A DNA stretch of 64,000 nt from positions 68,166 through 132,165 of IMG/VR virus record IMGVR_UViG_3300025133_000036; one strand, given 5' to 3'. Positions 24,703 to 43,689 of this stretch are shown here, piece by piece. A model generated the notes under the pieces. It was not told the DNA's origin. It made no database searches and worked only from the letters and a program-made list of their open reading frames with translations. This stretch comes from a virus. The first letter of the stretch is position 1. Every line of letters starts with the position of its first letter. Made by a program: the position numbers and the translations under genes.

Positions 24703-26676
24703 ATGAATGAAAAATTTACGTTGTCACTTGGGTTTATAGATAAGTACAAAAGAAAAAAACCACCATTCGGATTTAATGGATTAGGAGAGTTAGTTTATAT
24801 GCGGACCTATTCTCGCATAAAAGATGACGGTAAAAATGAAATGTGGTGGGAAACTATTCAACGAGTTGTAGAAGGCACATATTCTATGCAAAAAAGTTGG
24901 ATTGACCAACATCAACTTGGTTGGAATCCTTGGCAAGCACAAGCGTCTGCTCAAGAAATGTATGACAGAATGTTTAACATGAAGTTTTTACCTCCTGGTC
25001 GGGGGTTATGGGCGATGGGAACCGCGATAACAGAAGAAAAGAATCTTTACGCAGCGCTTAATAATTGTGCATTTGTATCTACAAAAACACTAAAAGAAGA
25101 TCACGCAAAACCGTTTTGTTTTTTGATGGATGCGTCAATGTTAGGTGTAGGGGTCGGTTTTGATACAAAAGGTGCCGGCGAGATAATGATAAAAGGTATC
25201 GCGACTAACAGAGATGTACAACAGTATGAAATACCAGATACTCGTGAGGGGTGGGTAGATTCTGTTAGAATTCTATTAGAAAGTTATTTCCATGGAACTG
25301 CTCCAATTGAATTTGATTATACAAAAATAAGACCTGCAGGAATTCCAATTAAAGGTTTTGGAGGACAGTCAAGTGGACCGGATCCGTTAAAAGAAGTTCA
25401 TGAAAAAATCCGGATAACTTTAGAAACCAATACTGGAGATCCAATTACAATAACTACAATCGTCAACATAATGAACCTTATTGGCAAGTGTGTAGTAGCA
25501 GGAAACGTAAGAAGAACTGCTGAGATCGTGTTTGGAGATCCAGATTCTGAAGAATATCTAGATCTTAAAAATTATAAAGTTAATCCTGAGAGAGAAGAAT
25601 TTGGATGGACGTCAAATAATTCTATATTTGCAGAACTTGGTATGGATTATACCGAATCAGCAAAAAGAATTATAGATAATGGTGAACCAGGATTCGCATG
25701 GTTAGAAAACATGAGAAAATATTCTCGCATGAAAAATGGTGGAGACAATAAAGATCATCGTGCTATGGGTGGTAATCCTTGTTTAGAGCAAACATTAGAG
25801 TCTTATGAATTATGTTGTCTTGTTGAAACTTTTCCAAATAATCATGAGTCTTTGGATGATTATGCTAGAACATTAAAATACGCATATTTGTATGCAAAAA
25901 CCGTCACTCTTGGTAAAACACAGTGGTCTGAAACAAATCGTGTAATGTTAAGAAATCGAAGAATAGGATGTTCAGTGAGTGGCGTTGCTCAATTTATCAC
26001 CAATCACGGTTTAGGAGAATTAAAGACTTGGTTAAATTCTGGATATGACGTTATACAAGAATGGGACAAAATGTATTCTGATTGGTTTGCAGTACCACGT
26101 TCAATCAAAACTACATCTGTTAAACCTAGCGGTACAGTTTCACTCCTCGCGGGAGCAACACCTGGATTACATTACCCAGAAAGTCGATTCTATATACGAA
26201 GGATCCGATTAGGAATCAATTCAGAATTAATTATGCCACTAGAAAAAGCCGGATATAAAATAGAACCCGCATTCGGTTCAGAATCTACTACAGTTGTTGT
26301 TGAAGTTCCAGTCGATGCCGGTCAAGGTATCAGAACAGTTAATGACTTATCTATTTGGGAACAATTCAGTTTAGCTGCATTTATGCAAAGACATTGGGCC
26401 GATAATCAGGTGAGCTGCACAGTCACATTTGATCCTAAAACAGAAGGCGTAGAATTACCTCAAGCATTAACTTACTTTCAATATCATTTAAAAGGAATCA
26501 GTTGTTTACCGAAACATGATTCTGGTGCTTATCGTCAAATGCCGTATGAAGAAATAGATAAAAAAACTTATAAAGGTATGCTTTTAAAATTAAAAAAATT
26601 AAGCTTTAGAAAAGTCAAAGGTAATGAGGCTATTGTTGAAAAATTTTGCGATGGAGATACGTGTGAACTTGAATAA
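24703..26676 (+). CDS. nrdJ: adenosylcobalamin-dependent (class II) ribonucleotide reductase
   Basis: LPPGRGLW, NNCAF, GNVRRTAEI, NPCLEQ, TTSVKPSGTVS, C-terminal FCDGDTC. Confidence 0.95.
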   Translation: MNEKFTLSLGFIDKYKRKKPPFGFNGLGELVYMRTYSRIKDDGKNEMWWETIQRVVEGTYSMQKSWIDQHQLGWNPWQAQASAQEMYDRMFNMKFLPPGRGLWAMGTAITEEKNLYAALNNCAFVSTKTLKEDHAKPFCFLMDASMLGVGVGFDTKGAGEIMIKGIATNRDVQQYEIPDTREGWVDSVRILLESYFHGTAPIEFDYTKIRPAGIPIKGFGGQSSGPDPLKEVHEKIRITLETNTGDPITITTIVNIMNLIGKCVVAGNVRRTAEIVFGDPDSEEYLDLKNYKVNPEREEFGWTSNNSIFAELGMDYTESAKRIIDNGEPGFAWLENMRKYSRMKNGGDNKDHRAMGGNPCLEQTLESYELCCLVETFPNNHESLDDYARTLKYAYLYAKTVTLGKTQWSETNRVMLRNRRIGCSVSGVAQFITNHGLGELKTWLNSGYDVIQEWDKMYSDWFAVPRSIKTTSVKPSGTVSLLAGATPGLHYPESRFYIRRIRLGINSELIMPLEKAGYKIEPAFGSESTTVVVEVPVDAGQGIRTVNDLSIWEQFSLAAFMQRHWADNQVSCTVTFDPKTEGVELPQALTYFQYHLKGISCLPKHDSGAYRQMPYEEIDKKTYKGMLLKLKKLSFRKVKGNEAIVEKFCDGDTCELE

Positions 26677-26724: not shown

Positions 26725-27594
26725 ATGCAAGGTTTTAAAAATCTTAATGAAATGTATTGGTATCTTTTAGCGGATCTTGATAGTGAAGGGCTAGAAGTTA
26801 GCAGTAGAGGTTCAAATCAAAAAGAAAAAATATATGTTCAATGTGGATTTAATGATCCAACTGATTTACAAGTACTATATCCAAGTAGAAAATTTAATCA
26901 GGAATATGCAATGACTGAATGGTTGTGGTATTGTTCACTTGATTCAAACGTAAAAAACATAGGAAAATTGGCTCAACTATGGAAACGCATATCAGATGAC
27001 AATAATCACGTTGAATCTAATTATGGTCCTTATTTCTTTAATCCCATTAATCAACCACATTTTCAAGGTAGTCAATGGGAATGGGTTAAAGAAGAACTAA
27101 TTAATGATCCAGATAGTAGAAGAGCCTCGATTGTTATTAATCAACCATATCATAAAGGAAAAAATCCATTAGACGTTCCATGTACACAATATGTTCAATT
27201 TTTCATTCGCCAAAATAAATTACACTTAGGCGTTTCAATGAGATCAAATGATATTGTTTATGGTTTAACCAATGATGCGTTTACATTCAGTTTATTTCAG
27301 CAGATGATGTATAATGAGTTAAAACTTAAAATGCCAGATTTAGAGCTTGGAACGTATAATCATTTTGCTGGATCGATGCATGTGTATGAAATGCATTATG
27401 AAATGGCAAGCAAAATCTTATCAGAATCCGAATATATCAATGAGAAAACTGATAGGAAATTTAAGCTTAAAGAAGATATCACATGGAATGTTATGATGAA
27501 AGATATAAATCCAAAATCAAAACTTATTGCGGATTCTCCTAAAGACGAAATTTTAGAGTATGTTAAAGAAAAAGAAAAGGAATTATTTGAATGA
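26725..27594 (+). CDS. thymidylate synthase-fold protein, dCMP hydroxymethylase-like (paralog 1)
   Basis: DSRRA, catalytic PC (DVPCT), MRSNDIVYGLTND with Asp at the pyrimidine-specificity position, GSMHVY. Confidence 0.85.
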   Translation: MQGFKNLNEMYWYLLADLDSEGLEVSSRGSNQKEKIYVQCGFNDPTDLQVLYPSRKFNQEYAMTEWLWYCSLDSNVKNIGKLAQLWKRISDDNNHVESNYGPYFFNPINQPHFQGSQWEWVKEELINDPDSRRASIVINQPYHKGKNPLDVPCTQYVQFFIRQNKLHLGVSMRSNDIVYGLTNDAFTFSLFQQMMYNELKLKMPDLELGTYNHFAGSMHVYEMHYEMASKILSESEYINEKTDRKFKLKEDITWNVMMKDINPKSKLIADSPKDEILEYVKEKEKELFE

Positions 27595-28085
27595 TAGTAT
27601 TTGTTGAAGGTTTATCAAAATCCGGAAAAACTCTTTTAATAAATAAATATTGTAAAAAATATCCTGATGCTGTAAGGTTCAAGGGAGCCGGACAAATTGT
27701 CATAGGATATGGCAATCGTTGGGATGAATACAATTATTGGATGCATAATATTGTTGAGCGAATGGACGAATTAAATGATTACAAAAAAGTAATACTTTGG
27801 GACAGAGGACTTACTGAATCTGTATATGGTAATTCTCAAGTTGAGCGTTATGCAAAATGCCACATACATAAAATGGCCGCTTTTATTGATATTCCATTTA
27901 AAATTCTTGCAGAAAGGGGAACAAAGGAAGGTGTCGAAACAGAACGTCACTTTCAAAAATATGAAAAAACGCTTTCAAAATTTGACACCGTACATCTTTT
28001 TTCAGATCAGCCAACTCATCATATAACGAACCGTATGATTGAAACTTTACATGAGGAAATAAAATGCAGATTAGCGATTATTTAG
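27591..28085 (+). CDS. P-loop nucleotide monophosphate kinase (dNMP kinase-like)
   Basis: IVFVEGLSKSGKT Walker A; ILWDRG..ESVY thymidylate-kinase-like motif. Confidence 0.8.
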   Translation: MIVFVEGLSKSGKTLLINKYCKKYPDAVRFKGAGQIVIGYGNRWDEYNYWMHNIVERMDELNDYKKVILWDRGLTESVYGNSQVERYAKCHIHKMAAFIDIPFKILAERGTKEGVETERHFQKYEKTLSKFDTVHLFSDQPTHHITNRMIETLHEEIKCRLAII

Positions 28086-29329
28086 ACCGAATTAATTCCA
28101 TATCATCTGCAAGAAATGTAGAAGATAAAGCACATCTTGCTCGACATGTCAAAAACATAACTGTTATAATTACAGGTTCTCGTGGGGGTTCTTCGCTATT
28201 CAAAGAGGCACTTACCAGGTCTCCAGAATTATTGTTCACTTCCGGAGAAGAATCACCATTTTTAGCTCTTACGCAAAATGAATTCCCGTTTGTTCCTTCG
28301 GATTTTCTTCAATCCAACAACATACAGTATAAAGATGAATTAATAAGTAATATATTAGATGATCTTGGTTTAAGAATTGAAGATGGTGATTTATCAATGA
28401 ATGCGTTTATTGAGCAAATGAGAAAACGCTTACTCCTTCAACTTCCAATTGAAGATTTTGATTTTAGTAAAGAACATTTAGAATCCATATTTTTTAAAAT
28501 TTTTGAAGACCATAGATTTTGGGCTGGAAATTATGACGAATTAATCAGGAAATTTTTAATTGAATTCACAGCCGGCAAAAATAAGCCATGGTTATACTAT
28601 TATGATACTTTTTTAAACGGACCCGAAGAACATTATCCACTTGATTGGAAAGTTGAAGATACGCCATTTGTTGTACCAAAATTAAAACAGCCATTAACAA
28701 AAAGCGATCTCGAGAAACATTCTTTAGTTTTTAAAACTCCTCAAAACGTTTATAGAGCCGGCATGTTTGAAACCTTATTTCCACGTGCCAAAGTAAAATA
28801 TCTTCACATGACAAGGGGTTTTGCTCAATCTGTCAACGGATTAATGGATGGATGGTTACATGATAAAGGGTTTTTCGCTAAAAATCTTGCTATGGATGGA
28901 CATACGTTAAATATAAAAGGATATTCCGACATAAAAGAATACGGCGATAAGTGGTGGAAATTTGATTTACCTCCTAATTGGGAAAATTTTAAAAATAATG
29001 CGTTATATGAAGTATGTGCTAATCAATGGGCTTCCGCACATGAACACGCACTAAACATTAAAATACTCAATAGCCCAGAGAACTATATGCAATTAAAATT
29101 TGAAGACTTTTTAGATTATCCACAGAAAATGATGAATGAGGTAACTGAATTTATAAACATAAAACCAATCAGTGTTGCAAATTTACCATTAGTTATGATA
29201 ACAAACAAGCCTAGAAAATATAGATGGCATAAAAGAAAAAAGTTAATACGAGAATTAGCAGATCAACCAAGAATTAAATCATTAATGAAAGCATTAAAAT
29301 ATAGCATGGAGGAAAATACATGGATATAG
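28064..29329 (+). CDS. PAPS-dependent sulfotransferase family protein
   Basis: 5'-PSB loop ITGSRGGSSL, FKTP, 3'-PB LHMTRG..SVNGL, LKFEDFLDYP. Confidence 0.8.
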   Translation: MQISDYLDRINSISSARNVEDKAHLARHVKNITVIITGSRGGSSLFKEALTRSPELLFTSGEESPFLALTQNEFPFVPSDFLQSNNIQYKDELISNILDDLGLRIEDGDLSMNAFIEQMRKRLLLQLPIEDFDFSKEHLESIFFKIFEDHRFWAGNYDELIRKFLIEFTAGKNKPWLYYYDTFLNGPEEHYPLDWKVEDTPFVVPKLKQPLTKSDLEKHSLVFKTPQNVYRAGMFETLFPRAKVKYLHMTRGFAQSVNGLMDGWLHDKGFFAKNLAMDGHTLNIKGYSDIKEYGDKWWKFDLPPNWENFKNNALYEVCANQWASAHEHALNIKILNSPENYMQLKFEDFLDYPQKMMNEVTEFINIKPISVANLPLVMITNKPRKYRWHKRKKLIRELADQPRIKSLMKALKYSMEENTWI

Positions 29330-30231
29330 GAGTCAATAGCGAATTTGGAAAATTAAAATCGGTATTATTACATGTCCCAACACGAGAAGAATTTGCATTT
29401 AATTCTGCAGAAGACATGATGTTTTTAGAAGAACCAAATTATGATAAAGTTTTATATGAAATAAATGCATACATTGAATTATTGGAATCTTTAGATATTA
29501 CGGTTTATACGGATATAGGATTTCCTCTTAGAACATCAATGGCTGTTGAATTTCCAAATCTTATTTACATGAAAGATTTAGCAATAGCAACTCCTGATCA
29601 GTTGATTCTTTGTCGTCCACATCACGATGTACGTAAAGGTGAAGAAGTATATTTACACAAGCTATTAAAACACATTGGCGTAACGGATGATCAGATCAAT
29701 TTTATTCCAGTAGGGGATCATGAAGGAGCAGATATTGTATGGTTAAATCCAAAAAAGATCATGATAAATGAAGGTTATCGTACAACTTTTAAAGCATCCG
29801 AAGAAATATCTAGATTTTTTAATTCACGATATGATATTGATTCTCATAAAATTGAAGGTAATAAACATCACCAAATACCTCAACATATTCAAGGATCAAA
29901 GCATATTTTTTCATTGACCAATGCTGCATACAGAAAAGAACTCGAGCCGTGGGACATGGATTTTGAAAATACATACGCGTTTAGTGAAACAGAAGAAATT
30001 GTAAAAGGCTTTTCATTAAACGTTATTACAGTGAATGAAAATGAAATTATAATGCCATCTGAATGTCCTGAAACTAAGGCAGCTTATGAATCTTTAGGTG
30101 TTAAATGTCACGAGTCTCCAATGAGCGAAATAACAAAGGGCGCTGGTGGATTTGCATGCATGACACTATTTTTAAATAGAGAAAAAGTATGGATGGGATT
30201 ACTTCCGGAAGGATTACCAAATGAATATTAA
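29320..30231 (+). CDS. amidinotransferase / arginine deiminase / DDAH (pentein) family protein
   Basis: VNSEFGKLKSVLLHVP, PNLIYMKD, EGAD, LNVITV, SEITKGAGGFACMT with the catalytic Cys. Confidence 0.88.
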   Translation: MDIGVNSEFGKLKSVLLHVPTREEFAFNSAEDMMFLEEPNYDKVLYEINAYIELLESLDITVYTDIGFPLRTSMAVEFPNLIYMKDLAIATPDQLILCRPHHDVRKGEEVYLHKLLKHIGVTDDQINFIPVGDHEGADIVWLNPKKIMINEGYRTTFKASEEISRFFNSRYDIDSHKIEGNKHHQIPQHIQGSKHIFSLTNAAYRKELEPWDMDFENTYAFSETEEIVKGFSLNVITVNENEIIMPSECPETKAAYESLGVKCHESPMSEITKGAGGFACMTLFLNREKVWMGLLPEGLPNEY

Positions 30232-30979
30232 AACTTGTAATACTGCAGGTGAAGCATTTGAATGGATGAGAGACGCCGTTAAGACTCGCGGATATGTCCA
30301 TGAATCCCGTGGTAAACGCACTAAAGAATTAATGCATGTAATGGTTGAAATAAAACGTCCTGACATGTCAGTTGTATGTATACCAAGTTTCAAGTGGGAT
30401 TTTATTTCACAGGAAGTTAGAGATATAATGACTGAAAATGATGTTAGTGCAATTCATTCAAAAGAAATGTTGGAATATACCATGGGCAGCCCTGATGCAA
30501 AATTCTTCTTCGGTGCTGAAGTCCGCGAAGCATTATCACCATGGTCTCTTGATGCAATATTTGAGTTGTTTAAACAAGATAAAGATACTCGAAAAGCCGT
30601 ATTAGATTTAGGAAATCGTAAACCTGAAGAGCATATTCCCTGTCTTTCGTTCGCCCACTTAGTAATTAGAGATAACAAGTTACATTGCACCCTTGAAACA
30701 CGCAGTACAGATTTAGCATTTGGGTATCCATACGATACAGTTTTATTTACAGTTATGCAAAGATATATGTTACACAGATTGCAAGAAATATATCCTGAGT
30801 TAAAATTAGGTTCATTCTTTTATAAAAGTATTTGCATGCATTATTACTTAAAGAATAATGATACACCACTAAAAGATTTAAACTTAACAACTAATGATCC
30901 AGAGGATTGCTGGTTACCTCCAGATACTCAAGGCTGGTTTGAAGATTGCATCATATCAGGAGATCCAAATCATGCCTAG
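30221..30979 (+). CDS. thymidylate synthase-fold protein, dCMP hydroxymethylase-like (paralog 2)
   Basis: DTRKA, HIPCLS, RSTDLAFGYPYD (Asp at specificity position), CMHYY. Confidence 0.82.
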   Translation: MNIKTCNTAGEAFEWMRDAVKTRGYVHESRGKRTKELMHVMVEIKRPDMSVVCIPSFKWDFISQEVRDIMTENDVSAIHSKEMLEYTMGSPDAKFFFGAEVREALSPWSLDAIFELFKQDKDTRKAVLDLGNRKPEEHIPCLSFAHLVIRDNKLHCTLETRSTDLAFGYPYDTVLFTVMQRYMLHRLQEIYPELKLGSFFYKSICMHYYLKNNDTPLKDLNLTTNDPEDCWLPPDTQGWFEDCIISGDPNHA

Positions 30980-31835
30980 AAATTCAACTAAAATAGAAAT
31001 AATAGACGATAAAAAAGTTATGGTCAAAACAATGTCTACAAAACTTTATAATCCGGCAATTTATGATTGGCAAAATGAAGTACATGACCATTTTTTAGAT
31101 AATACTGGTTTTTACATCAATAAAGTTTTAGGTCACAGTAATGGAGTTTTGCATTTAGACTATATTGATTATAAGTCAAAACCTACTACAAATAAAGATT
31201 TACAGTTATTTGGTAAGTCAATGGCTAAATTACACAATTCTGGAAGAGACTGGAATTTTTCATGGACAATGGCGCGAAATGGTGATGCTGGATGGATAAA
31301 AACCAGTCTTCCATATAAAGATGAAACATATAGCACCATGGCGTCGTGGAATAATATACGTAGAAATGATTGGCTATTTTTAAAATCAAAAGGTATACGC
31401 AAAGAAATATTCGAAACATTAAAAACATTAGATAAATTACCTGATCAGCCGAAATCTAAACTCCATAGAGATTTTAGATTACATAATATTTTGTATGACG
31501 AACGCGGTTACCATTTAATAGATTTTGATTTTGCTTCAATTGATTTTATATCATTAGAAGTAATGGGGTTATTTACGGACTTATATGAGCTTGTTCCTGA
31601 AATGGCACGACAATTTTTGATTGGTTATCATAGTGAGTCAAAAGATTGGGAATGGTCAAGTGGAATGGTTGATTTATTTTTGTGCTATCTTTGTACAAAT
31701 ACATTTCCATTTTCAATGTCAAGTCATATGGATAAAAATGAAGTAGAAGCTTTAGCCGATGAACGAAATGCAAGACTAAGAATTATTTATGAAAATAAAG
31801 AAAACATATTAAAAATGATTGAGGAAATAAAATGA
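30972..31835 (+). CDS. aminoglycoside phosphotransferase / choline kinase-like small-molecule kinase
   Basis: MAKLH, Brenner motif HRDFRLHNIL, IDFD; start taken at ATG 30972 (GGAG RBS, overlaps upstream stop). Confidence 0.82.
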   Translation: MPRNSTKIEIIDDKKVMVKTMSTKLYNPAIYDWQNEVHDHFLDNTGFYINKVLGHSNGVLHLDYIDYKSKPTTNKDLQLFGKSMAKLHNSGRDWNFSWTMARNGDAGWIKTSLPYKDETYSTMASWNNIRRNDWLFLKSKGIRKEIFETLKTLDKLPDQPKSKLHRDFRLHNILYDERGYHLIDFDFASIDFISLEVMGLFTDLYELVPEMARQFLIGYHSESKDWEWSSGMVDLFLCYLCTNTFPFSMSSHMDKNEVEALADERNARLRIIYENKENILKMIEEIK

Positions 31836-32275
31836 AAATAAGTAAAATACGAGACGTTAAAACGCCAGTACGAGCAAATGGTAATGATGCCGGCATAGAT
31901 TTTTTTATACCAAACAAATGGAATATCGGCAATGAATATCATCTATCACCAGGCCAACAAGCACTAATACCTTCAGGTGTCAAAGTAAATGTTCCAGAAG
32001 GTTATGCATTAATTGCGTTTAATAAATCAGGCATTGCCACTAAAAAACAATTGATTGCTGGCGCTGCAGTAGTAGATGAAGGTTATCAAGGGGAGCTTCA
32101 TATACACGTAATCAATGCTGGTTCAACTGTTCAGACATTGATCGCCGGCGACAAAATAATGCAATTTATTTTAGTACCTATGTTTTATGATTCAATTGAA
32201 GAAGTAGATGCATCAGTATTATTTGAAGATAATTCAACTAGGGGTGCTGGCGGATTTGGTTCAACCGGTGAATAA
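31832..32275 (+). CDS. dut: trimeric dUTPase
   Basis: AGIDF, KSG, VVDEGYQGEL, GDKIMQ, RGAGGFGSTG. Confidence 0.93.
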   Translation: MKISKIRDVKTPVRANGNDAGIDFFIPNKWNIGNEYHLSPGQQALIPSGVKVNVPEGYALIAFNKSGIATKKQLIAGAAVVDEGYQGELHIHVINAGSTVQTLIAGDKIMQFILVPMFYDSIEEVDASVLFEDNSTRGAGGFGSTGE

Positions 32276-32514: not shown

Positions 32515-34965
32515 ATGTCATTTGAACTAACCCGCATTGCTTCTAAGTTCAATAAAGGTCAATTTAAAATGTTTTTAACAGGCTATGAAGATGGAAAGCG
32601 TGTAACAAAGTATGATATGTTTCAAGATTATTTCTATTATGATACTGAACATATTTCTGACGTTGAAAGCAAGCCCGGGTTTACAGTTGATAAGACTTCT
32701 GAAATAAAAACCATTGACGATAAAAAGGGCTATAAAGTAAATTATACATCAATCGTCAATAAGAAAAGATTTATCAGAAAACATACGGACAGATCATATA
32801 TTGCCGATGTATCACCTGAATTCAAATATATTCAAGATAAGAATCTGAAATGGTCACATAAACGTAACATATGTTTTTTTGATATTGAAACGTGGTATGA
32901 TCCTGATAATCCAAGAGCAAACAAACCTGATAATGCCCAAATGCCTATTACATCAATGGTTGCATATGCAGTTGATACTGAAAAATATTTTGTATTTTCT
33001 TGGCATCCTGAACATACTAAAAATGATGAAAAACCTAGACGTGAAGATAAAGATAATGTTGCATTCATCTATCTAAAAGACGAAGAAACCATGATCGAAG
33101 CGTTTCTTTATTATGTTAAGAAAAACAATGTAGATGTTCTCACAGGATGGTATTCATCGCAATTTGATTTACCATACATTATAAACCGGTGCAAAAACTT
33201 AGATATTGATTATTCCAAGCTTTCTCCAGTTGGTTACATTAAAATGTATAAAAAACAAGATTATTTTAAATTAACAGTCAATGGTCTTGACTGTATTGAT
33301 CTTATGGATTCTATGCAAGACCTTGGATTTAAACTCACAAATTGGAAACTTGATACAGCTGCGAAAGAAGTTGTTGGAACAGTAGAAAAAATGACAGAGT
33401 TTACATGGAAAGACTGGCTTGAAAATTATGAAGGGTTTTTAGAATATAATATACAAGACGTAAAAATACTTCTTGAAATAGAAAAGAAATTAAATATTTT
33501 TTCTTTGTATTGTATTATTCAAGAGATTGCGGGTCTTGAAGCTTTTAAGTTTATATTCTTTAAATCGATGCTAGTTGACTATTACATTCTTAAAGCCTTT
33601 AACGGCAAAATGCTTTTTCCAACACAACAAGTAAAACAGCGACAATCATTTGCAGGCGCCATTGTATTAGATCCACAAGAGCCGGGAGGCCATGAAGATG
33701 TTGCAACATTAGATTATACATCTCTATATCCAACAAGCATAATGGCATTTAATATTAGCCCTGAAACTTTTATTTGCAGTGAAGAAAATGCCATAGAAGA
33801 AACCGGAATGACAATCGATCAAATCGCCAGCGAGTTAAAAACTAGGAAGATTGATTTCATAGATACTGGTCATGATGCAACCTTATTCGGCAAACGCTAT
33901 CTGTTTTTTGGTCACTCTCACAGACTGGGTATTATGCCCTTTCTGTTGAAAACGTTATTCTTAATGCGTAAAGATATTAATGCAAAGTTAGACGCTGGTG
34001 AAATACCTGAAAAAGATAGAGTTGCAAACGAACGCAAACAGCGAGCTATTAAATTAATTCTTAATTCCGCATATGGGGCTATGGGTTTTAATTATTTTAG
34101 AATGTATAAGCCTGAATGCGCTGATGCAACAACGTATTTCGGTAGACAAGCGTTATTGTACGCTGTTGATACAATGAAAAATGAGTATGACATGCCAGTT
34201 TTATATGGCGATACTGATTCAACTTTTGTAAAACAAAATGGCAAATCTATTAATCAAATTGTAGATTTACTTGAAGGTGATTTTACAGATAAACTTAGAA
34301 ATGTATTTGTTCCAAAGTACTCAACAACAGTTAATGACGATTACTTTTATCTTGATCTTAAATTTGAAAAAGATCTTGAACATGTATATTTTGGTAATGC
34401 TAAAAAACGTTATTATGGTATTGAACGAACCTCCGGTAAGCGGTACATCCGTGGCCTAAACATTATTCGTAAAGACGCTCCAACATATTGTAAAAAGATA
34501 CTCGACACCCTTGCAGAAAAAGCTGTAAGAGGCAAGTTAACAGCGGATGATCTTATACGTATACGTAAAGAGATTGCTCAAGTACCGTTAAGTCAAATTG
34601 GTATTGTCAAAAGTTTTAGTAAACGATTTGAAGAGTATATTAAAAGTAAACCTCAACATCTTACAGCGTGCCAATGGGCTAATGAAATATTTGACATCAG
34701 CATCAATAATATGGACAAGCCATTACTGTTTTATGCTACAGCGCTACAAGAAGATCACTTAAAACCTAAAAAACGTCATCGTGCAATATGTGTACTTGAC
34801 GATCAATTAGATCTTTTAAAGAAAGAAAATGAATTTTTCAAACTCGATTATGATACATTTTTTAAAAAGCAAATTTACGAACAACTAGAAGAATTTAGTC
34901 AAATACCCTATATTGAAACTATTTTAAAGGAATATGATGAAACGGCGAAGACTATTAACTTTTAA
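32515..34965 (+). CDS. family B DNA polymerase
   Basis: Exo motifs FDIET, FDLPYI, YNIQD; pol motifs LDYTSLYPT, KLILNSAYG, YGDTDS, KKRY. Confidence 0.96.
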   Translation: MSFELTRIASKFNKGQFKMFLTGYEDGKRVTKYDMFQDYFYYDTEHISDVESKPGFTVDKTSEIKTIDDKKGYKVNYTSIVNKKRFIRKHTDRSYIADVSPEFKYIQDKNLKWSHKRNICFFDIETWYDPDNPRANKPDNAQMPITSMVAYAVDTEKYFVFSWHPEHTKNDEKPRREDKDNVAFIYLKDEETMIEAFLYYVKKNNVDVLTGWYSSQFDLPYIINRCKNLDIDYSKLSPVGYIKMYKKQDYFKLTVNGLDCIDLMDSMQDLGFKLTNWKLDTAAKEVVGTVEKMTEFTWKDWLENYEGFLEYNIQDVKILLEIEKKLNIFSLYCIIQEIAGLEAFKFIFFKSMLVDYYILKAFNGKMLFPTQQVKQRQSFAGAIVLDPQEPGGHEDVATLDYTSLYPTSIMAFNISPETFICSEENAIEETGMTIDQIASELKTRKIDFIDTGHDATLFGKRYLFFGHSHRLGIMPFLLKTLFLMRKDINAKLDAGEIPEKDRVANERKQRAIKLILNSAYGAMGFNYFRMYKPECADATTYFGRQALLYAVDTMKNEYDMPVLYGDTDSTFVKQNGKSINQIVDLLEGDFTDKLRNVFVPKYSTTVNDDYFYLDLKFEKDLEHVYFGNAKKRYYGIERTSGKRYIRGLNIIRKDAPTYCKKILDTLAEKAVRGKLTADDLIRIRKEIAQVPLSQIGIVKSFSKRFEEYIKSKPQHLTACQWANEIFDISINNMDKPLLFYATALQEDHLKPKKRHRAICVLDDQLDLLKKENEFFKLDYDTFFKKQIYEQLEEFSQIPYIETILKEYDETAKTINF

Positions 34966-35410
34966 ACGAATATTAAAAGCCCTTGAGTACTCATCGACAT
35001 GTGCAAAAATAAAAGTTGCGGCAATTGTTGTTAAAGAAGGAAGAGTTATATCGACCGGCTGGAACGGTTCTCCATCTGCAATGCCACATTGTGAAGATGT
35101 TTTTAAAGGTAAAGATCTCGGTCGGCCAGGCGATAAAACGAAATTATCAAACGAACACCATGATTTCGCAGTACACAATGAAATACACGCCGAAATGAAT
35201 GCAATATCGTTTGCTGCAAGATATGGAACATCAACTGATGGTGCAACATTGATTTGTTCATGGTCACCATGCCTTGAATGTGCAAAGATAGTTGTAGGTT
35301 CTGGAATTAAAGAAGTATATTATACTAATTTGTATGGGCGTCAACCTGAAGGAATAGACTTTTTAGAAAAATGCGGAATTAAGACGCAATATATAGGAAA
35401 GAAACAATAA
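34934..35410 (+). CDS. dCMP deaminase
   Basis: TGWNG, HAEMNAI, SPCLEC zinc motifs. Confidence 0.93.
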   Translation: MMKRRRLLTFKRILKALEYSSTCAKIKVAAIVVKEGRVISTGWNGSPSAMPHCEDVFKGKDLGRPGDKTKLSNEHHDFAVHNEIHAEMNAISFAARYGTSTDGATLICSWSPCLECAKIVVGSGIKEVYYTNLYGRQPEGIDFLEKCGIKTQYIGKKQ

Positions 35411-35430: not shown

Positions 35431-35808
35431 ATGAAAACTATAAAAGATACATCACATTCATTACCAAAATCGCCCGCTGAATCTATTTTAGATAATGCTT
35501 ATCCACAAATGATAGCAGAATTTAAAAAGGTTCAACAAGAACAATTTGATCTCTTCTGTAAAAAACAACACGATTACGGTCCAGGAAACATTTCTGTAGG
35601 CACTCAACTTCAAACCGAAGATGAAATAAAGCTTTCACTAACCGGACTTTGGTTCAGGATTAATGACAAATGCCAGAGATTAAAGAATCTTTTAATGAGC
35701 GGTAGACAACCTGCTGTAACTGACGAACCAATGGAAGACGCGTATCTTGATATATCGAATTATGGTATCATGGCGACAATTGTTGCTAGAGGAAAATGGG
35801 GTAAATAA
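35431..35808 (+). CDS. nucleotide modification-associated domain 1 (Nmad1/DUF1599-like) protein
   Basis: KKQHDYGPGNI..RINDKCQRL..EDAYLDISNYGI pattern. Confidence 0.75.
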   Translation: MKTIKDTSHSLPKSPAESILDNAYPQMIAEFKKVQQEQFDLFCKKQHDYGPGNISVGTQLQTEDEIKLSLTGLWFRINDKCQRLKNLLMSGRQPAVTDEPMEDAYLDISNYGIMATIVARGKWGK

Positions 35809-35891
35809 TGGTAATGTTTACTATGGTATTTATTGGTAGTTTAATAATGTGGTTTTTAATAGAACAAGAATCAAAGAGGCGAAGAAAATGA
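35808..35891 (+). CDS. 27-aa hydrophobic peptide
   Basis: MVMFTMVFIGSLIMWFLIEQESKRRRK; coupled at both ends (TAATG and ATGA). Confidence 0.5.
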   Translation: MVMFTMVFIGSLIMWFLIEQESKRRRK

Positions 35892-36931
35892 AAACATATT
35901 TAGAATATATTTGGATTGACGGTACTATTCCAACAAGTAAATTAAGAGCTAAAACAAAAATTTTGAGTGAGCCTATTAAAGATATTCAAGATATTCCTAT
36001 TTGGGGTTTTGATGGTAGCTCAACAAATCAAGCGTCCGGTGATAGTTCCGATTGTGTTCTTAAACCTGTAAAAATGGTTAAAGATCCATTTAGAATTTGT
36101 GGTGAAGATGAACAAGCTTTACTAGTATTGTGTGAAGTATACGATGTACCAAAGACGGCTTTTGGAATCGACGAAGTTGCACACACAACAAATACCAGAA
36201 TGGAGTTATTAATGACGATGATGCAATATAATACGACTTCAGCGTGGGTAGGGTTCGAACAAGAATATACATTGTTTAAAGATGGACGCCCATTAGGCTG
36301 GCCTGAAAAAGGCTATCCACCTCCACAGGGTCCATTTTATTGTGGAATAGGTGCAGATGAGGTTTACGGTCGTGATATTGTTGAGGAACATTTATTTGCA
36401 TGTCACTACGCAGATTTAGCAGTTTGCGGTGTTAATGCAGAAGTAATGCCTGGTCAATGGGAATATCAAGTTGGTGCTGGAGATTTATTGGTAATGTGTG
36501 ATGATTTATGGTTGTCTCGTTATATCCTGTATCGTATAGCGGAAAAACATGACGTTGTAGTTACACTTCATCCAAAGCCCGTAGCAGGAGATTGGAATGG
36601 TGCGGGAATGCATACAAATTTTTCAACTGCTCAAATGAGAGAACCTGGCGGTTATACCAAAGAAATTATACCAGCAATGGATAAGTTGAAAAATAACGTG
36701 GATCATTGTATTGCTGCGTATGGACAAGACAACGACTTAAGACTTACAGGCCTTCATGAAACGTGTGACATTAATACTTTCAAGTGGGGAGTATCAGACA
36801 GAGGAGCATCAATTAGAATTCCTTGGCAAGTTGTTAAAGACGGTAGAGGATATTTCGAAGATAGAAGACCATCCGCTAATGCAGATCCTTATTTAGTTGC
36901 ATCTGTAATATTAGATACAGTATCTGAATAA
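35888..36931 (+). CDS. glnII: glutamine synthetase type II
   Basis: LEYIWIDG, WGFDGSST, GFEQEY, NAEVMPGQWEYQ, HPKP..DWNGAGMHTN, RLTGLHET, DRGASIRIP, EDRRP. Confidence 0.95.
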   Translation: MKTYLEYIWIDGTIPTSKLRAKTKILSEPIKDIQDIPIWGFDGSSTNQASGDSSDCVLKPVKMVKDPFRICGEDEQALLVLCEVYDVPKTAFGIDEVAHTTNTRMELLMTMMQYNTTSAWVGFEQEYTLFKDGRPLGWPEKGYPPPQGPFYCGIGADEVYGRDIVEEHLFACHYADLAVCGVNAEVMPGQWEYQVGAGDLLVMCDDLWLSRYILYRIAEKHDVVVTLHPKPVAGDWNGAGMHTNFSTAQMREPGGYTKEIIPAMDKLKNNVDHCIAAYGQDNDLRLTGLHETCDINTFKWGVSDRGASIRIPWQVVKDGRGYFEDRRPSANADPYLVASVILDTVSE

Positions 36932-37299
36932 TGTACGGTTACAATGGATTTGAAAAAGCTGCAATGAGAATAATGGTCTTGATTGTTCTTGGATGTGTAC
37001 TGTTGCTTTATTTGCAATTGATATCATGTACAAATTCACCTAACGGTGCAATTAATTTAAGTCCAAAGAATCCTAAAGGTCCGCAGGGTTATGAGCTTAA
37101 GGGTTTCCATGGTCAAATGCATAGATATAAAGAAGACATCAGTGCTATTCCATTATCTGATTTTCCAAGTGTTAACAGATATTTAACGCAGTTTTGTTTA
37201 AACCATCATAGTACAGAATGTATATCATTAAGAATTACAAATATTAATAATGAAAAGAAAACAAATTACATAATGAATGATTGTAGAGGTCGTAAGTAA
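36931..37299 (+). CDS. hypothetical membrane-anchored or lipoprotein
   Basis: Hydrophobic N-terminus ending LISC; coupled ORF. Confidence 0.55.
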   Translation: MYGYNGFEKAAMRIMVLIVLGCVLLLYLQLISCTNSPNGAINLSPKNPKGPQGYELKGFHGQMHRYKEDISAIPLSDFPSVNRYLTQFCLNHHSTECISLRITNINNEKKTNYIMNDCRGRK

Positions 37300-38164
37300 T
37301 ATGCAAAAAATAAGTTGGTCACAATATTCGGCATGGAAATCATGTCCTCAAAAATGGAAGCTTCGCTACATCGATAAACAGAAAATCTATACGGATTCTA
37401 TATACACTGTTTATGGTAAAGCTTTCCATGAAGTATTACAAACGTACCTTACTGTAATGTATTCAGAGTCAATAAAGGCTGCAGACGAATTAGATTTGGG
37501 TAATATGCTCGTTGAATCGCTTAGAAAGATTTACTCAGAAGCTGTAGCATCAATGGGAGGCTCTCATTTTTCAAAAAAATCTGAACTTATAGAGTTTTGC
37601 ATCCAGGGCGCAAAGGCTTTAGATTGGTTTAAAAAGAAACGGGCTCATTATTTTACAAAAAATGGTTGGGAACTTTTAGGTATTGAAGTACCATTGGAAG
37701 ACGAATACAACGGTGTAAAAGTTTTAGGGTATATTGATATTCTTATGAAAAATATAGATACCGGCCGAATAAGGGTTATAGACATTAAGACTTCAACCCG
37801 AGGATGGAAAAAAGAAAAAAAAGATCCAATGAAACGCGGCCAATTATTATTTTATAAAAAATTTATTGCGGACAAATATGAGTGTGATCTTAGCATGGTA
37901 GATGTTGAATTTCTTATCTTTAAACGTTTACTTTGGGAAAATTCGGATTTTCCACAAAAATGGGTACAATCATTTGAACCACCGTCTGCAAATGTGTCTA
38001 TTAACAGAACTTTTAAAGAGATTGACATATTTATTAGTGAATGTTTCAATCCAGATGGAAGTTATAATACTGAAGCACAATATGAACAATTAGGCATAGA
38101 GAGTGGATGCAAATGGTGTGAATTTAAAGACAAACCACTTTTGTGTGATAGGAGCGGCAGATGA
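37277..38164 (+). CDS. Cas4-like / RecB-family PD-(D/E)XK exonuclease
   Basis: SWSQY..CP, GKAFHE, GYIDIL, IDIKTS, QLLFY, C-terminal CKWCEF..C Fe-S ligands. Confidence 0.88.
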   Translation: MIVEVVSNMQKISWSQYSAWKSCPQKWKLRYIDKQKIYTDSIYTVYGKAFHEVLQTYLTVMYSESIKAADELDLGNMLVESLRKIYSEAVASMGGSHFSKKSELIEFCIQGAKALDWFKKKRAHYFTKNGWELLGIEVPLEDEYNGVKVLGYIDILMKNIDTGRIRVIDIKTSTRGWKKEKKDPMKRGQLLFYKKFIADKYECDLSMVDVEFLIFKRLLWENSDFPQKWVQSFEPPSANVSINRTFKEIDIFISECFNPDGSYNTEAQYEQLGIESGCKWCEFKDKPLLCDRSGR

Positions 38165-38595
38165 TACCAGAAGTAAAGATTAGAGGATTAGATTTTATTA
38201 GTACTGAATATGAGGAAGCTGTATGGTCTTATATTTCTAATATTCAACATGATATAAGAGGCGAGTTTATTATCACATTTCACGGCGAATCAAGTGATGA
38301 AATAAAGATTATTTCTGCTTCAGCTATCAAGCATGCAAATTCATTAAGAATACGAACAAACATAGTATTGTCTAGATTATGTCGTAAATTTGTATTTTTA
38401 GATATAACGTCAAACGATACTATAGACAATAGTTCTGAGTTTAGATTTCAAATACGAAAGGAAGCTCCAGTAAATATTATACACGGCTTGCGCTTTATAA
38501 AAGATCACATGAACCATATTGCAACTCCAATACATCATTCTAATGAAAAGCGGCAAAAAAGAAATGACTCATCCGAATTTAATTACAATAAATAA
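38161..38595 (+). CDS. hypothetical protein
   Basis: Coupled ORF (ATGA), 144 aa. Confidence 0.6.
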   Translation: MIPEVKIRGLDFISTEYEEAVWSYISNIQHDIRGEFIITFHGESSDEIKIISASAIKHANSLRIRTNIVLSRLCRKFVFLDITSNDTIDNSSEFRFQIRKEAPVNIIHGLRFIKDHMNHIATPIHHSNEKRQKRNDSSEFNYNK

Positions 38596-39088
38596 CAGTA
38601 TACAAAAAGTCATATCTTTCATTGTAGAGGATTTAGAGATGGGAAATGAAGGATTGTACGATATACAATTATGCGGTAGTTATGTGAATGGCTTTGTAGA
38701 TGATAAGAGCGATATAGATATTGTATTTATAGTAGAAGACGTGGATAAATGGAGGCAGAAAATATCCTCTAGACTCAAAAGAAAGATTAAATCTGAGGAT
38801 AATGTGGACATTTTAATGGTCTCAAAAAACCGTTATTTAAAAGTTAAACATCTGTTACGGAATTATTCATTAACTAAAAATAAGTTTTTATACAATGAAG
38901 AACATGAATATATGCCGACTATTTTTCCTGGACCTAGAATACGGTCAAGTACAGCTGACTATACGCTAAAAATAAAACGTAGCAAAATAAAAAGATTAAA
39001 ACAAGCATACAAGGATGACAAAATATTTTTTCCGACAAAACAACTTGAACAAGAGTGGCTAGAATTGTTAGATAAAACAACCAAGTAA
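38564..39088 (+). CDS. minimal nucleotidyltransferase (Pol-beta superfamily)
   Basis: LCGSYVNG..KSDIDIVF..VDIL signature. Confidence 0.8.
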   Translation: MTHPNLITINNSIQKVISFIVEDLEMGNEGLYDIQLCGSYVNGFVDDKSDIDIVFIVEDVDKWRQKISSRLKRKIKSEDNVDILMVSKNRYLKVKHLLRNYSLTKNKFLYNEEHEYMPTIFPGPRIRSSTADYTLKIKRSKIKRLKQAYKDDKIFFPTKQLEQEWLELLDKTTK

Positions 39089-39376: not shown

Positions 39377-40861
39377 ATGTTTAAAATTGGAGATATTCGA
39401 AATGGATATCCGGTCCTTCCTCGGGAAGAACGTAAAACAATGCTTCTATTATCAGATGATTTTAGAATGACATCTGGTGTAGGTAATGTATCCCGGGAGT
39501 TTGTATTGGGAACTTGTCATAGATTCAATTGGGTGCAAATTGGTGGGGCCATAAAGCATCCTGAAGCAGGGAATGCAATTGACATGAATGATGATCTGAT
39601 AGAACGTACAGGTGTTCCGGAAGTAGAATGTAAAATTCATCCAGTAGATGGTTATGGAAATCCTGATATTGTACGTGGAGCAATGGCGCACTACAATTTG
39701 TCTGGCATAATGATTTATACGGATCCACGATTTTGGGAATGGTTATTTCAAATGGAACGAGAAGTCCGTCAATTTTTACCTATAATGTATTATAACATAT
39801 GGGATGATCTTCCGTATCCAATGTGGAATCAAAAGTATTATGATTCTGTAGATGCATTGTTTAATATTTCAAAACAAACATGCAATATTGTGCGAAATGT
39901 TAGATCATCATATGAGGATTGGCAAGTAACGTATATTCCTCATGGAATAAATAAAAAAGATTATTTTCCGCTTCCAGTTAACTATGAAAAAGCCGATCAG
40001 TTTAATAAATTTAAAAATGAAGGATTTGACGGAAAAGATAAAGATTTTGTTATACTATTTAATGCTCGTAATATTAGAAGAAAATTACCAGCAGATATTA
40101 TTTACGCGTATAGAACATTTTGTGATTCTATTTCAAAAGAGGATGCGTCAAAATGCTTACTAGTAATGCACTGCAATCCGCAAGACGAAAACGGCACAAA
40201 TTTACCAGAAGTTGCAACTCAACTTGCAGGTGAGTATGATGTTGCATTTTCACCGAATAAGTTTGAACGCGAACAAATAAATTGGTTATACAATACAGCA
40301 GATGTAACCATATTAATAAGCTCCAACGAGGGATTTGGCTTATCAGGCGCAGAATCATTGATGTGTGGAACTCCAATAATTGTTAACGTATCTGGTGGAA
40401 TGCAAGATTATTGTGGATTCAAAAAAGAAGATGGAACTTATTTAACACATGAAGATTATACCCCTGAATGGGGATCTAATCATGATGGTCGATATAAAGA
40501 TCATGGTGAATGGGTATTTCCAGTGTGGGCAACAAGTAGATCCTTACAGGGCTCTATGCCAACACCATATATTTCAGATGACAGACCGGATTTTCAAGAT
40601 ATAGCAATACAAATGAAAAAAGCATGGTCTGAAAGAGGTGAAAAGTTAAACGCTAGGGGAATGGCTGGGAGAAAGTACGTTACAAATCCAGAATTTGGAT
40701 TTGAATCGGATGAAATGAATAAGCGGTTTACTCATGACATTGAAAATACACTTAAAATGTGGAAACCTAGATCGAGAATCGATATTCATGATGCTAGTAA
40801 ATGGGAAATTCCAAAAAACAAATACAATGGGCTAACATTGACAAAGGAAATTGAAGTATGA
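39377..40861 (+). CDS. glycosyltransferase, GT4/GT-B
   Basis: YIPHGIN, NARNIRRK, YNTADV..SSNEGFGLSGAESLMCGTPII. Confidence 0.92.
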   Translation: MFKIGDIRNGYPVLPREERKTMLLLSDDFRMTSGVGNVSREFVLGTCHRFNWVQIGGAIKHPEAGNAIDMNDDLIERTGVPEVECKIHPVDGYGNPDIVRGAMAHYNLSGIMIYTDPRFWEWLFQMEREVRQFLPIMYYNIWDDLPYPMWNQKYYDSVDALFNISKQTCNIVRNVRSSYEDWQVTYIPHGINKKDYFPLPVNYEKADQFNKFKNEGFDGKDKDFVILFNARNIRRKLPADIIYAYRTFCDSISKEDASKCLLVMHCNPQDENGTNLPEVATQLAGEYDVAFSPNKFEREQINWLYNTADVTILISSNEGFGLSGAESLMCGTPIIVNVSGGMQDYCGFKKEDGTYLTHEDYTPEWGSNHDGRYKDHGEWVFPVWATSRSLQGSMPTPYISDDRPDFQDIAIQMKKAWSERGEKLNARGMAGRKYVTNPEFGFESDEMNKRFTHDIENTLKMWKPRSRIDIHDASKWEIPKNKYNGLTLTKEIEV

Positions 40862-42153: not shown

Positions 42154-42154
42154 C

Positions 42155-42604
42155 ATGGAAAGAGTAGTACAATGCGCCCATTGCGCAACAGAAGACCATT
42201 GCTTTGAAGAAATGCAAGAAACCTATAGTTCGTTTATGTGTTTCAATTGTGGATTTATGAGTGATACTAGATTCACTAAAAAAAATGAAGAAAAACTCAC
42301 TCCGGATTCTACAATATTAGTGAATAAATTAAAAATATTTGATAAAGAAAGAAAGATATGGTGGTTCCCAGCCGTAGTCAATATGGGTAAACTAGGAATC
42401 ATATTTCCTGAAGGTACAGAAGAAGCGTGGAACTGGAAATATGCAAAGGCTATTAAAGTTTCAGAAGAAAAGAAAGAAGAAATCGGCGATTTTGAGATGA
42501 TGTTAGATACAGAAAATGCAGAGAGTTATGAAAAATTTGATTTTTTAAGTGCGTGTCAAGACATGGGTATTGCTAAAGATCTTACCCTAGCATCAGATGG
42601 CTAA
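42155..42604 (+). CDS. hypothetical Zn-ribbon protein
   Basis: CAHC..CFNCGF. Confidence 0.65.
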   Translation: MERVVQCAHCATEDHCFEEMQETYSSFMCFNCGFMSDTRFTKKNEEKLTPDSTILVNKLKIFDKERKIWWFPAVVNMGKLGIIFPEGTEEAWNWKYAKAIKVSEEKKEEIGDFEMMLDTENAESYEKFDFLSACQDMGIAKDLTLASDG

Positions 42605-43079: not shown

Positions 43080-43087
43080 GAGGTAAA

Positions 43088-43657: not shown

Positions 43658-43689
43658 TTTTTGAACAACCAAACTTATATATATTATAA

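Follow-up and report, generated by a model that had tools for sequence, protein, structure and literature searches.

A mobile six-gene phage cassette proposed to make a hypermodified cytosine at the nucleotide level

What product could call for two thymidylate synthase (TS)-fold proteins, two kinases, a sulfotransferase and an enzyme of guanidino chemistry, all encoded side by side in a phage genome? This question is raised by a 64,000-nucleotide stretch of viral DNA, referred to here as the window, which forms the last 64 kb of the 132-kb IMG/VR viral record IMGVR_UViG_3300025133_000036, a record estimated to be ~70% complete. Positions 26725–31835 of the window hold six open reading frames (ORFs) on the plus strand with overlapping stop and start codons, encoding in this order a first TS-fold protein (TS1), a P-loop protein, a sulfotransferase-fold enzyme (SULT), a pentein-superfamily enzyme, a second TS-fold protein (TS2) and an APH/choline-kinase-fold kinase. 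All six ORFs are present on the plus strand, in the order and within the boundaries given by the original prediction, which had been made from the letters alone and had proposed a DNA hypermodification pathway at this site. Successive genes overlap by 4, 22, 10, 11 and 86 nt, the last value falling to 8 nt with a kinase start at Met27 (30972); the protein Atlas entry for this kinase is exactly the 287-residue form starting at Met27. The G+C content is ~34% across the window and likewise in the cassette. We lean towards reading the six genes as a pre-replicative pathway, acting on nucleotides, by which a hypermodified C5 derivative takes the place of cytosine, or is used alongside it, in the phage DNA.

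The two TS-fold proteins can be read with a residue code described in PMC13326640, in which Cys146 is catalytic, N177D denotes dCMP as substrate, L143D/E a hydroxymethyl product and D169N a 5-hydroxy-dCMP synthase. TS1 (26725–27594, plus strand; PF00303, 2e-20) has the CMP hydroxymethylase MilA (1.3e-22) and the T4 dCMP hydroxymethylase (4e-18) as its best solved relatives. Its segment LDVPC contains Cys146 together with L143D, RSND keeps Asp169 and GLTND carries N177D, and these signature residues are identical in 7/7 TS1 orthologues. As judged from its sequence, TS1 has the complete 5-hydroxymethyl-(d)CMP synthase signature of the T4 gp42/MilA type. Alignment to solved structures confirmed the claim that both TS-fold proteins keep the catalytic Cys and that in each of them Asp takes the place of ThyA Asn177 (GLTND in TS1, GYPYD in TS2). 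By the code of PMC13326640, this Asp argues against dUMP as the substrate of either protein.

TS2 (30221–30979, plus strand) is a divergent TS-fold protein, the short form of a phage-only clade and our candidate C5-methylene transferase. It matches PF00303 (6.6e-7) with 29.2 bits against a cut-off of 24.3, the match being limited to profile positions 115–218. The clade comprises 42 protein clusters scoring at least 161 bits, all of them metagenomic, with the next match at 109 bits; its profile is alignable to ThyA residues 113–217 only, and most long-form members have no precomputed PF00303 match. Cys146, Arg166, Arg126, His207 and the Asp at the N177 site are invariant in 34/34 aligned clade sequences. 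The L143 site is a His in all 34, so that the acidic residue of the hydroxymethylase signature is absent, and the Asp169 site, a folate contact, is variable (D in 6, E in 9, A in 15, S in 4 and N in 0), with D marking the short form (6/6), which includes the TS2 of the window. The claim of two dCMP hydroxymethylases thus oversimplifies: TS1 has the full signature, TS2 with its His at L143 and its variable Asp169 site does not. A role of either protein as a 5-hydroxy-dCMP synthase of the RB69 gp48 type was rejected, since D169N occurs neither in TS1 (Asp in 7/7) nor in the TS2 clade (N in 0/34). Among 50,697 GenBank phage records, the best relatives of TS2 were generic pyrimidine hydroxymethylases with 29% identity.

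SULT (28064–29329, plus strand; 421 residues) is a sulfotransferase-fold enzyme of the 3'-phosphoadenosine 5'-phosphosulfate (PAPS) type with a helical insertion. It matches PF13469 (Sulfotransfer_3; 1.5e-6) with 29.1 bits against a cut-off of 27, and 363 homologues were found. The segments SRxGSSLxK, which is P-loop-like, and TRGFAQSVNGLMDGW are conserved in 24/24 aligned sequences, and within these 24 sequences the motifs SRxGSSLxK and TRGxAQS show little or no variation; we take them to be the 5'-phosphosulfate-binding loop and the 3'-phosphate-binding Arg/Ser strand, respectively. All Foldseek matches of the AlphaFold2 model (pLDDT 89.5) at E ≤ 0.001 were sulfotransferases (8/8 chains), the best being the activating domains of an olefin synthase (4gox, 8e-6) and of CurM (4gbm, 9e-6). 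With these domains the model shares 13–14% identity at TM-scores of 0.34–0.55, and the phage protein has the large helical insertion in addition. By its predicted fold and its binding motifs, SULT is best described as a putative PAPS-dependent sulfotransferase. Activating sulfotransferase domains such as those of CurM and the olefin synthase use sulfate as a transient leaving group, and a leaving-group sulfate of this kind would spare the DNA a lasting negative charge. An activation of the hydroxymethyl base itself by SULT was judged rather unlikely, because the thymine-type operons described below (type B) already contain a 5-hydroxymethyl-deoxyuridine DNA kinase (5-HMUDK) and cassettes of the window type (type A) already contain two kinases; furthermore, no pyrimidine enzyme lies near the bacterial homologues. 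A predicted complex of SULT with the pentein-superfamily enzyme scored 0.00, in a prediction run without controls. A tblastn search with SULT against the GenBank phage records returned no match at 1e-3.

The gene following SULT encodes the pentein-superfamily enzyme (29320–30231, plus strand; 303 residues; PF02274, 9e-12), which had been labelled an amidinotransferase. Its family profile matches Pseudomonas aeruginosa DDAH over the full length (1.2e-20) and arginine deiminase at 2e-15. The amidinotransferases AGAT (1e-6) and StrB1 (0.007) are matched over the C-terminal ~60 residues only. The earlier label was therefore dropped, and an amidinotransferase of the AGAT, StrB1 or CyrA type was rejected in favour of the far better, full-length DDAH and arginine deiminase matches, which make guanidino hydrolysis more likely than amidino transfer. 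Cys280, His189, Glu135, Asp86, Arg105 and Arg154 are invariant in 10/10 orthologues and align with DDAH positions that we take to be the catalytic and substrate-holding ones; the agreement with the substrate-holding set suggests that the substrate is of the arginine type and has a free carboxylate. With a Cys-His-acid set and the substrate-binding Asp and Arg residues in place, its sequence marks the protein as a probable DDAH/arginine-deiminase-like guanidino-group hydrolase. It falls below all NCBIfam equivalog cut-offs (48 versus 450 bits) and is thus not an orthologue of any named enzyme.

Two kinases complete the set. The P-loop protein (27591–28085, plus strand; 164 residues), a probable modified-dNMP kinase, has a predicted nucleoside monophosphate (NMP)-kinase fold resembling that of thymidylate kinase, with a Walker A motif GLSKSGKT and an LWDRG motif invariant in 9/9 orthologues. 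Its match to Pfam Thymidylate_kin lies below the cut-off (0.05; 13.7 versus 27 bits), it matches phrog_761 'thymidylate kinase' at 3.6e-4, and the top TM-scores of its AlphaFold2 model (pLDDT 89), 0.66–0.68, are to Staphylococcus aureus thymidylate kinase. A search of the phage's own genome with the APS_kinase, HMUDK and Ploopntkinase3 models found no match to this protein at E ≤ 1. A supply of PAPS by this protein acting as APS kinase was rejected, PF01583 having no match at E ≤ 1 in the record and APS kinase a TM-score of 0.44 against the 0.66–0.68 for thymidylate kinase. A 5-HMUDK-type DNA kinase was likewise rejected, as PF18748 and PF18751 gave no match and an hhalign alignment to the Ploopntkinase3 protein of locus L011 covered 22 residues around the Walker A motif with a probability of 30%. 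The last gene (30894–31835, plus strand; probable start 30972) encodes a protein that matches PF01636 (APH, 4.9e-10) with 40 bits against a cut-off of 23.2 and carries the motifs HRDFRLHN and IDFDF, presumably the catalytic HxDxxxxN and the metal-binding DF[DE] motif. Its Atlas neighbours are APH clusters of the thiamine-kinase, fructosamine-kinase and CotS types, and its sequence assigns it to the small-molecule kinases of the APH/choline-kinase fold.

Do these genes belong together? Single-sequence locus searches with SULT or the pentein gave no relatives, which were found by alignment-based scans. A scan of IMG/VR with an alignment of SULT homologues returned 11 loci, which were searched with 36 window proteins, and scans seeded with TS2 returned 8 IMG/VR loci (seven contigs already found via SULT, with L100 new) and 35 loci in JGI metagenomes. 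Metagenome presence counts refer to loci with enough flank for the gene in question; they take in any overlap with IMG/VR, and L114/L116, L129/L135 and L130/L131 share gene coordinates and may be near-duplicates. Among the SULT-seeded loci, the pentein gene lies beside SULT in 10/11, L013 having an arginase-family gene in its place, and the P-loop, TS2 and APH genes are also present in 7/11, with one further locus ending at the contig end. The TS2-seeded IMG/VR loci contain SULT, pentein and APH genes in 8/8 cases. In the metagenome loci the corresponding counts are 30/32 for the pentein, 25/26 for SULT, 17/20 for the P-loop protein and 24/25 for the APH kinase, whose gene directly follows TS2 in 24 of the 25 loci with room. 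Misses at L107, L121 and L128 occur in contigs starting inside the cassette behind an insertion; the other misses are at L111, L132 and L136. Where a metagenome locus has room for the whole cassette, SULT, pentein, TS2 and APH genes are present in 14/14 and TS1 in 12/14, L130 and L131 having none. Co-occurrence of SULT and pentein genes with the TS paralogs in other genomes, on which the original prediction had staked itself beforehand, was thus observed in 8/8 IMG/VR loci and 14/14 full metagenome loci, and the recurrence of the gene order in dozens of other phage contigs shows that the arrangement is not due to chance.

The surroundings of the cassette differ between lineages. A relative of the window phage (L003) has nrdJ, TS1, P-loop, SULT and pentein genes before its contig ends, and an nrdJ-type ribonucleotide reductase gene also precedes the cassette in L103 and L105, where a dUTPase-family gene follows the cassette. 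L004–L007 and L012 have the order P-loop, SULT, pentein, TS2, APH, TS1, and L008 and L009 share this order but lack TS1. Searches of these seven loci with the 36 window proteins gave matches inside the cassette only; genes for a sigma factor, a subtilase, an RNase H-like protein and a PD-(D/E)XK nuclease flank it there, versus nrdJ and family-B polymerase genes in the window. GIY-YIG homing-endonuclease-like ORFs lie between the pentein and TS2 genes at L005:12169–12903 and L007:8504–9229. Together, the differing flanks and the homing-endonuclease inserts suggest that the cassette is held together by selection and not by shared genome ancestry. The pentein/TS2 junction is an insertion hot spot (0.8–4.2 kb) also in L012, L106, L107, L124 and L128; the 4.2-kb insert of L012 includes an ORF of the T4 Gp23 major capsid family (13024–14133; 2.8e-21). 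In the long-form lineage, a guanylate-kinase-family gene (3.2e-21) and a gene for a conserved protein of 190–250 residues without a Pfam match precede the cassette (L004:8354–9477). This pair occupies the same position in L005–L007, L012 and nine metagenome loci, and it has no homologue beside the window cassette. A blastn search of the 5.1-kb cassette against the 50,697 GenBank phage records gave no match; with SULT and the cassette lacking a match there and TS2 finding nothing above 29% identity, no cultured phage is at hand.

What ties this module to DNA bases is its appearance inside a second kind of operon. Locus L011 has the order ParB_N, Tet/JBP dioxygenase, Ploopntkinase3, SULT, pentein and ADDT (amino acid:DNA transferase), L010 the order ADDT, SULT, pentein, and L013 the order HMUDK helical domain, 5-hmdU DNA kinase, SULT, ADDT, arginase-family protein. 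According to PMC13229309 and PMC8989533, ParB, 5mYOX, the P-loop kinase and the amino acid:DNA transferase (AADT) are the machinery of thymine hypermodification. As PMC8989533 describes, 5-hydroxymethyluracil (5hmU) in DNA is first phosphorylated, after which a free amino acid is attached and 'sculpted' by tailoring enzymes. For AADT a covalent activation is proposed there, with loss of the phosphate to give an exocyclic C5 methylene that takes up the amine in a Michael addition; all characterised amino-acid hypermodifications are post-replicative. Strict co-occurrence and the presence of the SULT/pentein pair inside 5mYOX/ParB, 5-HMUDK and AADT operons bear out the claim that the genes are one module linked to DNA-base modification. 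In sequence terms, SULT and the guanidino hydrolase form a sub-module for tailoring or donor supply that is combined with two different base-activation chassis. ADDT, HMUDK and Ploopntkinase3 (PF18724, PF18748, PF18751) and Tet/JBP had no match at E ≤ 1 in the ~70% complete 132-kb record; another enzyme must then perform the attachment in this phage, for which the APH kinase and TS2 are the only conserved candidates. In L010, an adenylosuccinate-synthetase-family gene (5300–6373; 1.5e-53; 357 residues, a PurZ-like size) lies ~2.6 kb upstream of the ADDT, SULT and pentein genes, and by its sequence this phage may combine purine replacement with thymine hypermodification.

The literature found describes no base modification that pairs a sulfotransferase with an amidinotransferase-type enzyme, in line with what had been stated before, nor does it link a sulfotransferase or DDAH-type enzyme to phage base modification; the supplements of PMC8989533 and PMC13229309 could list such genes. 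The word 'sulfotransferase' has 0 occurrences in the main text of PMC8989533, and its supplementary gene-cluster tables may differ. The main text of PMC13229309 has 0 occurrences of 'sulfo', 'arginase' and 'deiminase', its supplement possibly differing, and the main text of PMC8670742 makes no mention of sulfotransferases or DDAH-type enzymes in phage base modification.

A bacterial genome scan with SULT returned 98 relatives, of which the best 80 were kept; these 80 belong mostly to Oxalobacteraceae and Sphaerotilaceae, with some metagenome-assembled genomes of the candidate phyla radiation, and are 35–41% identical to the phage SULT over the full length with the same invariant residues. Directly downstream lies an arginase-family gene (77/80 loci) and directly upstream a small N-methyltransferase-type gene (74/80), one example of each neighbour having been identified by Pfam. 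No homologue of the pentein, a TS-fold protein or a kinase lies within 10 kb of SULT in any of the 80 loci, and the bacterial operon evidently makes a small molecule. Its arginase-family partner resembles arginases (4e-11) and DcsB, an N-omega-hydroxy-arginine amidinohydrolase (2.8e-10), and the arginase-family partner in the phage locus L013 is arginase-/DcsB-like as well. In three independent settings, SULT thereby has a guanidino-processing enzyme as its partner. Since DDAH and DcsB both cleave N-omega-substituted arginines, this constant company points to an arginine-type acceptor: judging from sequence, SULT probably acts on an arginine-type small molecule, or on an arginine N-alkylated at its alpha-amine, rather than on a pyrimidine. 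A tree of 12 phage and 27 bacterial SULT sequences (every third of the 80 loci) placed the bacteria in one clade with support of 99/98, and L011, L013 and L010 on long branches; being unrooted and having these long branches, it does not give the order of phage types A and B.

How could the six proteins work together? We regard it as likely that the cassette makes a modified cytosine for phage DNA, and find it somewhat easier to see the modification being made at the nucleotide level than otherwise. TS1 would convert dCMP to 5-hydroxymethyl-dCMP, as its complete residue signature suggests, and by analogy with 5-HMUDK and ThiD the APH-type kinase would phosphorylate the 5-hydroxymethyl group. 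The Cys of TS2 could then add to C6 and the leaving group be expelled, giving an exocyclic C5 methylene to which an amine adds; this novel step would follow the chemistry proposed for the amino acid:DNA transferases, here performed by a TS fold on a mononucleotide. TS-fold enzymes natively pass through an exocyclic C5 methylene, and on this basis we propose that nucleotide-level analogues of 5-HMUDK and AADT are to be seen in the APH kinase and TS2. The amine would be an arginine-type amino acid made or trimmed by SULT and the DDAH-like hydrolase, as their constant pairing suggests, and the thymidylate kinase-like P-loop protein would convert the modified dNMP to the dNDP for the phage family-B polymerase.

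Individual parts of this scheme differ in strength. That the attached group is arginine-derived seems to us evenly poised, and TS2 as the attaching enzyme is a tentative assignment that we hold with more doubt than conviction. It is doubtful that the sulfate stays in the final base, the alternative being a transient role. The most far-reaching version remains speculative, namely that TS2 represents a new TS-fold class, a folate-independent C5-methylene transferase that swaps the leaving group of an activated 5-hydroxymethyl-dCMP for an arginine-derived amine, so that DNA cytosine would carry a citrulline-, ornithine- or arginine-type chain whose formation needs PAPS-dependent sulfation; sulfotransferase and DDAH-type chemistry would then serve in DNA base synthesis for the first time.

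Several observations weigh against the proposed pathway. What is directly established are the gene families, the conserved active-site residues and a strict and mobile co-occurrence, every enzymatic step being inferred. The absence of nucleotide enzymes near SULT in the 80 bacterial loci means that the step of SULT and the hydrolase need not touch a base. With the CMP-specific MilA as the closest solved relative of TS1, its substrate may be the ribo- or the deoxyribonucleotide. The short-form TS2 of the window keeps Asp169, so that methylene-tetrahydrofolate may be used in this phage. An adjacent TS1 gene is missing in L130 and L131, which have 5–8 kb of flank on each side, and also in L008 and L009, implying that in these phages TS2 acts on dCMP directly or 5-hydroxymethyl-dCMP comes from a gene elsewhere. 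The P-loop fold matches shikimate and gluconate kinases at E-values similar to those for thymidylate kinase, and the protein reaches no family cut-off. No gene for PAPS synthesis was found in the ~70% complete 132-kb record (PF01583, no match at E ≤ 1). Finally, a permanent sulfate would add a negative charge to DNA, the opposite of the known cationic hypermodifications.

The genomic setting agrees with the neighbours named before. Upstream of the cassette are genes for RecA-like, FEN and DnaB-like proteins and a B12-dependent nrdJ-type ribonucleotide reductase (24703–26676; PF17975, 4.9e-43), which lies outside the mobile core. Downstream follow genes for a dUTPase-family protein (31832–32275; PF00692, 2.5e-16; TIGR00576, 94 bits versus a cut-off of 102.55), which overlaps the APH kinase gene by 4 nt, a family-B polymerase, a dCMP deaminase (34934–35410; PF00383, 3.7e-21) and an Nmad1/DUF1599 protein (35431–35808; PF07659, 1e-6); the ribonucleotide reductase, dUTPase-family, deaminase and Nmad1 genes are all on the plus strand. 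The cassette is thus located within a replication and nucleotide-metabolism block that includes Nmad1. Directly after Nmad1 lies a GlnII-type glutamine synthetase gene (35849–36931, plus strand; NF041605, 6.4e-139, 462.7 bits versus a 500-bit cut-off), which was rejected as a pathway member because in other phages the cassette occurs without it. It is followed on the plus strand (37277–39088) by genes for a PD-(D/E)XK nuclease (6.8e-17), a 144-residue ORF without a Pfam match and a Pol-beta-type nucleotidyltransferase. A large plus-strand glycan-synthesis block (39377–51607) encodes two GT4 proteins, one of which also matches 'GT4 in conflict systems', four GT2 proteins, a GT8-like protein, a DegT-type aminotransferase (5.8e-74), a dTDP-sugar isomerase-like protein and a methyltransferase; this cluster was rejected as part of the pathway, being absent beside the cassette elsewhere. 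Three runs from three studies labelled marine metagenome (X4, X5 and X6) contain near-identical low-depth contigs covering 29, 29 and 27 of 30 bins, in which the phage is nearly unchanged with 0–1 differences per contig. Run X2 has a word share of 0.96 with positions 26725–31835, yet gave five short, mostly unlike pieces. Among the sequencing runs listed for the window there is no RNA run.

Two other explanations deserve weight, both of which we consider improbable. The first moves the decoration onto the polymer: TS1 and the P-loop kinase would provide 5-hydroxymethyl-dCTP as in T4, and TS2 and the pentein, with the APH kinase and/or SULT as activators, would act on 5-hydroxymethylcytosine (5hmC) in DNA. 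It draws on the post-replicative nature of all characterised amino-acid hypermodifications (PMC8989533), on the operons in which SULT and pentein accompany a kinase and a transferase acting on DNA, and on the best structural matches of SULT, which are 'activating' sulfotransferases that create a leaving group. Opposed to it are the Arg166, Arg126 and His207 kept by TS2, which hold a free mononucleotide by its 5'-phosphate and 3'-OH, the lack of a DNA-binding domain detected by Pfam in the six proteins, and the bacterial SULT homologues, which have no DNA-modification neighbours; moreover, we know of no TS-fold enzyme acting on polymeric DNA.

The second explanation, which we likewise hold to be rather improbable, takes the product to be a free nucleotide or nucleoside that is not incorporated, for example a mildiomycin-like compound of 5hmC and an arginine-derived moiety or an anti-defence metabolite. 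Mildiomycin consists of 5-hydroxymethylcytosine and an arginine-derived chain, and MilA, the closest solved relative of TS1 (1.3e-22), is the CMP hydroxymethylase of its biosynthesis; the tailoring of small molecules is typical work of APH-fold kinases and sulfotransferases, and the bacterial SULT operon evidently yields a small molecule. Nevertheless, the conserved core has no nucleotide hydrolase, no nucleosidase of the MilB type and no peptide-ligating enzyme, the cassette lies in a DNA replication block with its own NMP-kinase-like gene, and the SULT/pentein pair is found inside bona fide DNA hypermodification operons. An ordinary nucleotide metabolism beside unrelated genes, with the TS paralogs as plain dTMP or 5-hydroxymethyl-dCMP synthases and SULT and the pentein acting on virion glycans or proteins, is very hard to sustain: the many glycosyltransferase and sugar-nucleotide genes at 39377–51607 speak for it, but the glycan genes are not carried along with the cassette (the 36 window proteins gave no match beyond it in L004–L012), SULT, pentein, TS2 and APH genes are linked in 14/14 complete loci, and the Asp at the N177 site of both TS proteins stands against dUMP as substrate (PMC13326640).

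Phage DNA hypermodifications govern how DNA is read by restriction enzymes, CRISPR nucleases and sequencing chemistries, and they are a source of DNA-labelling enzymes. To our knowledge, the amino-acid-type hypermodifications described to date are all on thymine and made on the polymer by 5-HMUDK and AADT. Phage pyrimidine hypermodification as such is known; it is the enzyme types that are new to the field. If the nucleotide-level pathway is true, it would extend amino-acid-type chemistry to cytosine and to the nucleotide pool, add a new reaction to the thymidylate synthase fold and bring sulfotransferases and DDAH-like hydrolases into nucleic-acid biochemistry. The cassette occurs often among uncultured phages (35 loci in metagenomes, 12 in IMG/VR), and runs containing the window phage are labelled marine; the modified base may hence be widespread in environmental viromes and a possible source of bias when these are sequenced. 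The pair of SULT and hydrolase found in Burkholderiales suggests a metabolite made from arginine there, and the phage pathway could help to reveal its identity.

Among the known systems, the T4 pathway (gp42 dCMP hydroxymethylase and gp1 dNMP kinase) is matched by the same residues in TS1, by the NMP-kinase-like gene that follows it and by the dCMP deaminase and dUTPase-family genes nearby. It differs in that SULT, the pentein, TS2 and the APH kinase have no T4 counterpart, the P-loop kinase lies below dNMP-kinase family cut-offs and no MazG-type dCTPase was found in the 132-kb record. The 5-hydroxy-dCMP synthases of RB69 and DLP3 are TS homologues with D169N that depend on flavin, a precedent that a phage TS fold with an altered Asp169 can drop folate chemistry and make another C5 substituent on dCMP; TS1 and TS2 differ from them in lacking D169N, and the His at L143 of TS2 is not described there (PMC13326640, sections 24 and 28). 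The thymidine pathways of phages M6, ViI and PaMx11 (5-HMUDK with AADT/aGPT-Pplase) follow a like logic of activation by a kinase, entry of the amine via an exocyclic C5 methylene and trimming (PMC8989533). Unlike them, the window genome has no HMUDK, Ploopntkinase3 or ADDT match, its base is of the cytosine type, the proposed transferase is TS-fold and the kinase APH-fold, and the chemistry probably takes place on a mononucleotide. Compared with the ParB-dependent 5mYOX clusters of PMC13229309, L011 has the published arrangement with SULT and pentein genes inserted between the kinase and AADT, whereas the window has no Tet/JBP gene and uses TS-fold enzymes. The methyltransferase-SULT-arginase operon of Burkholderiales, which contains no TS-fold, kinase or pentein gene, shares with the cassette the pairing of SULT with a guanidino hydrolase.

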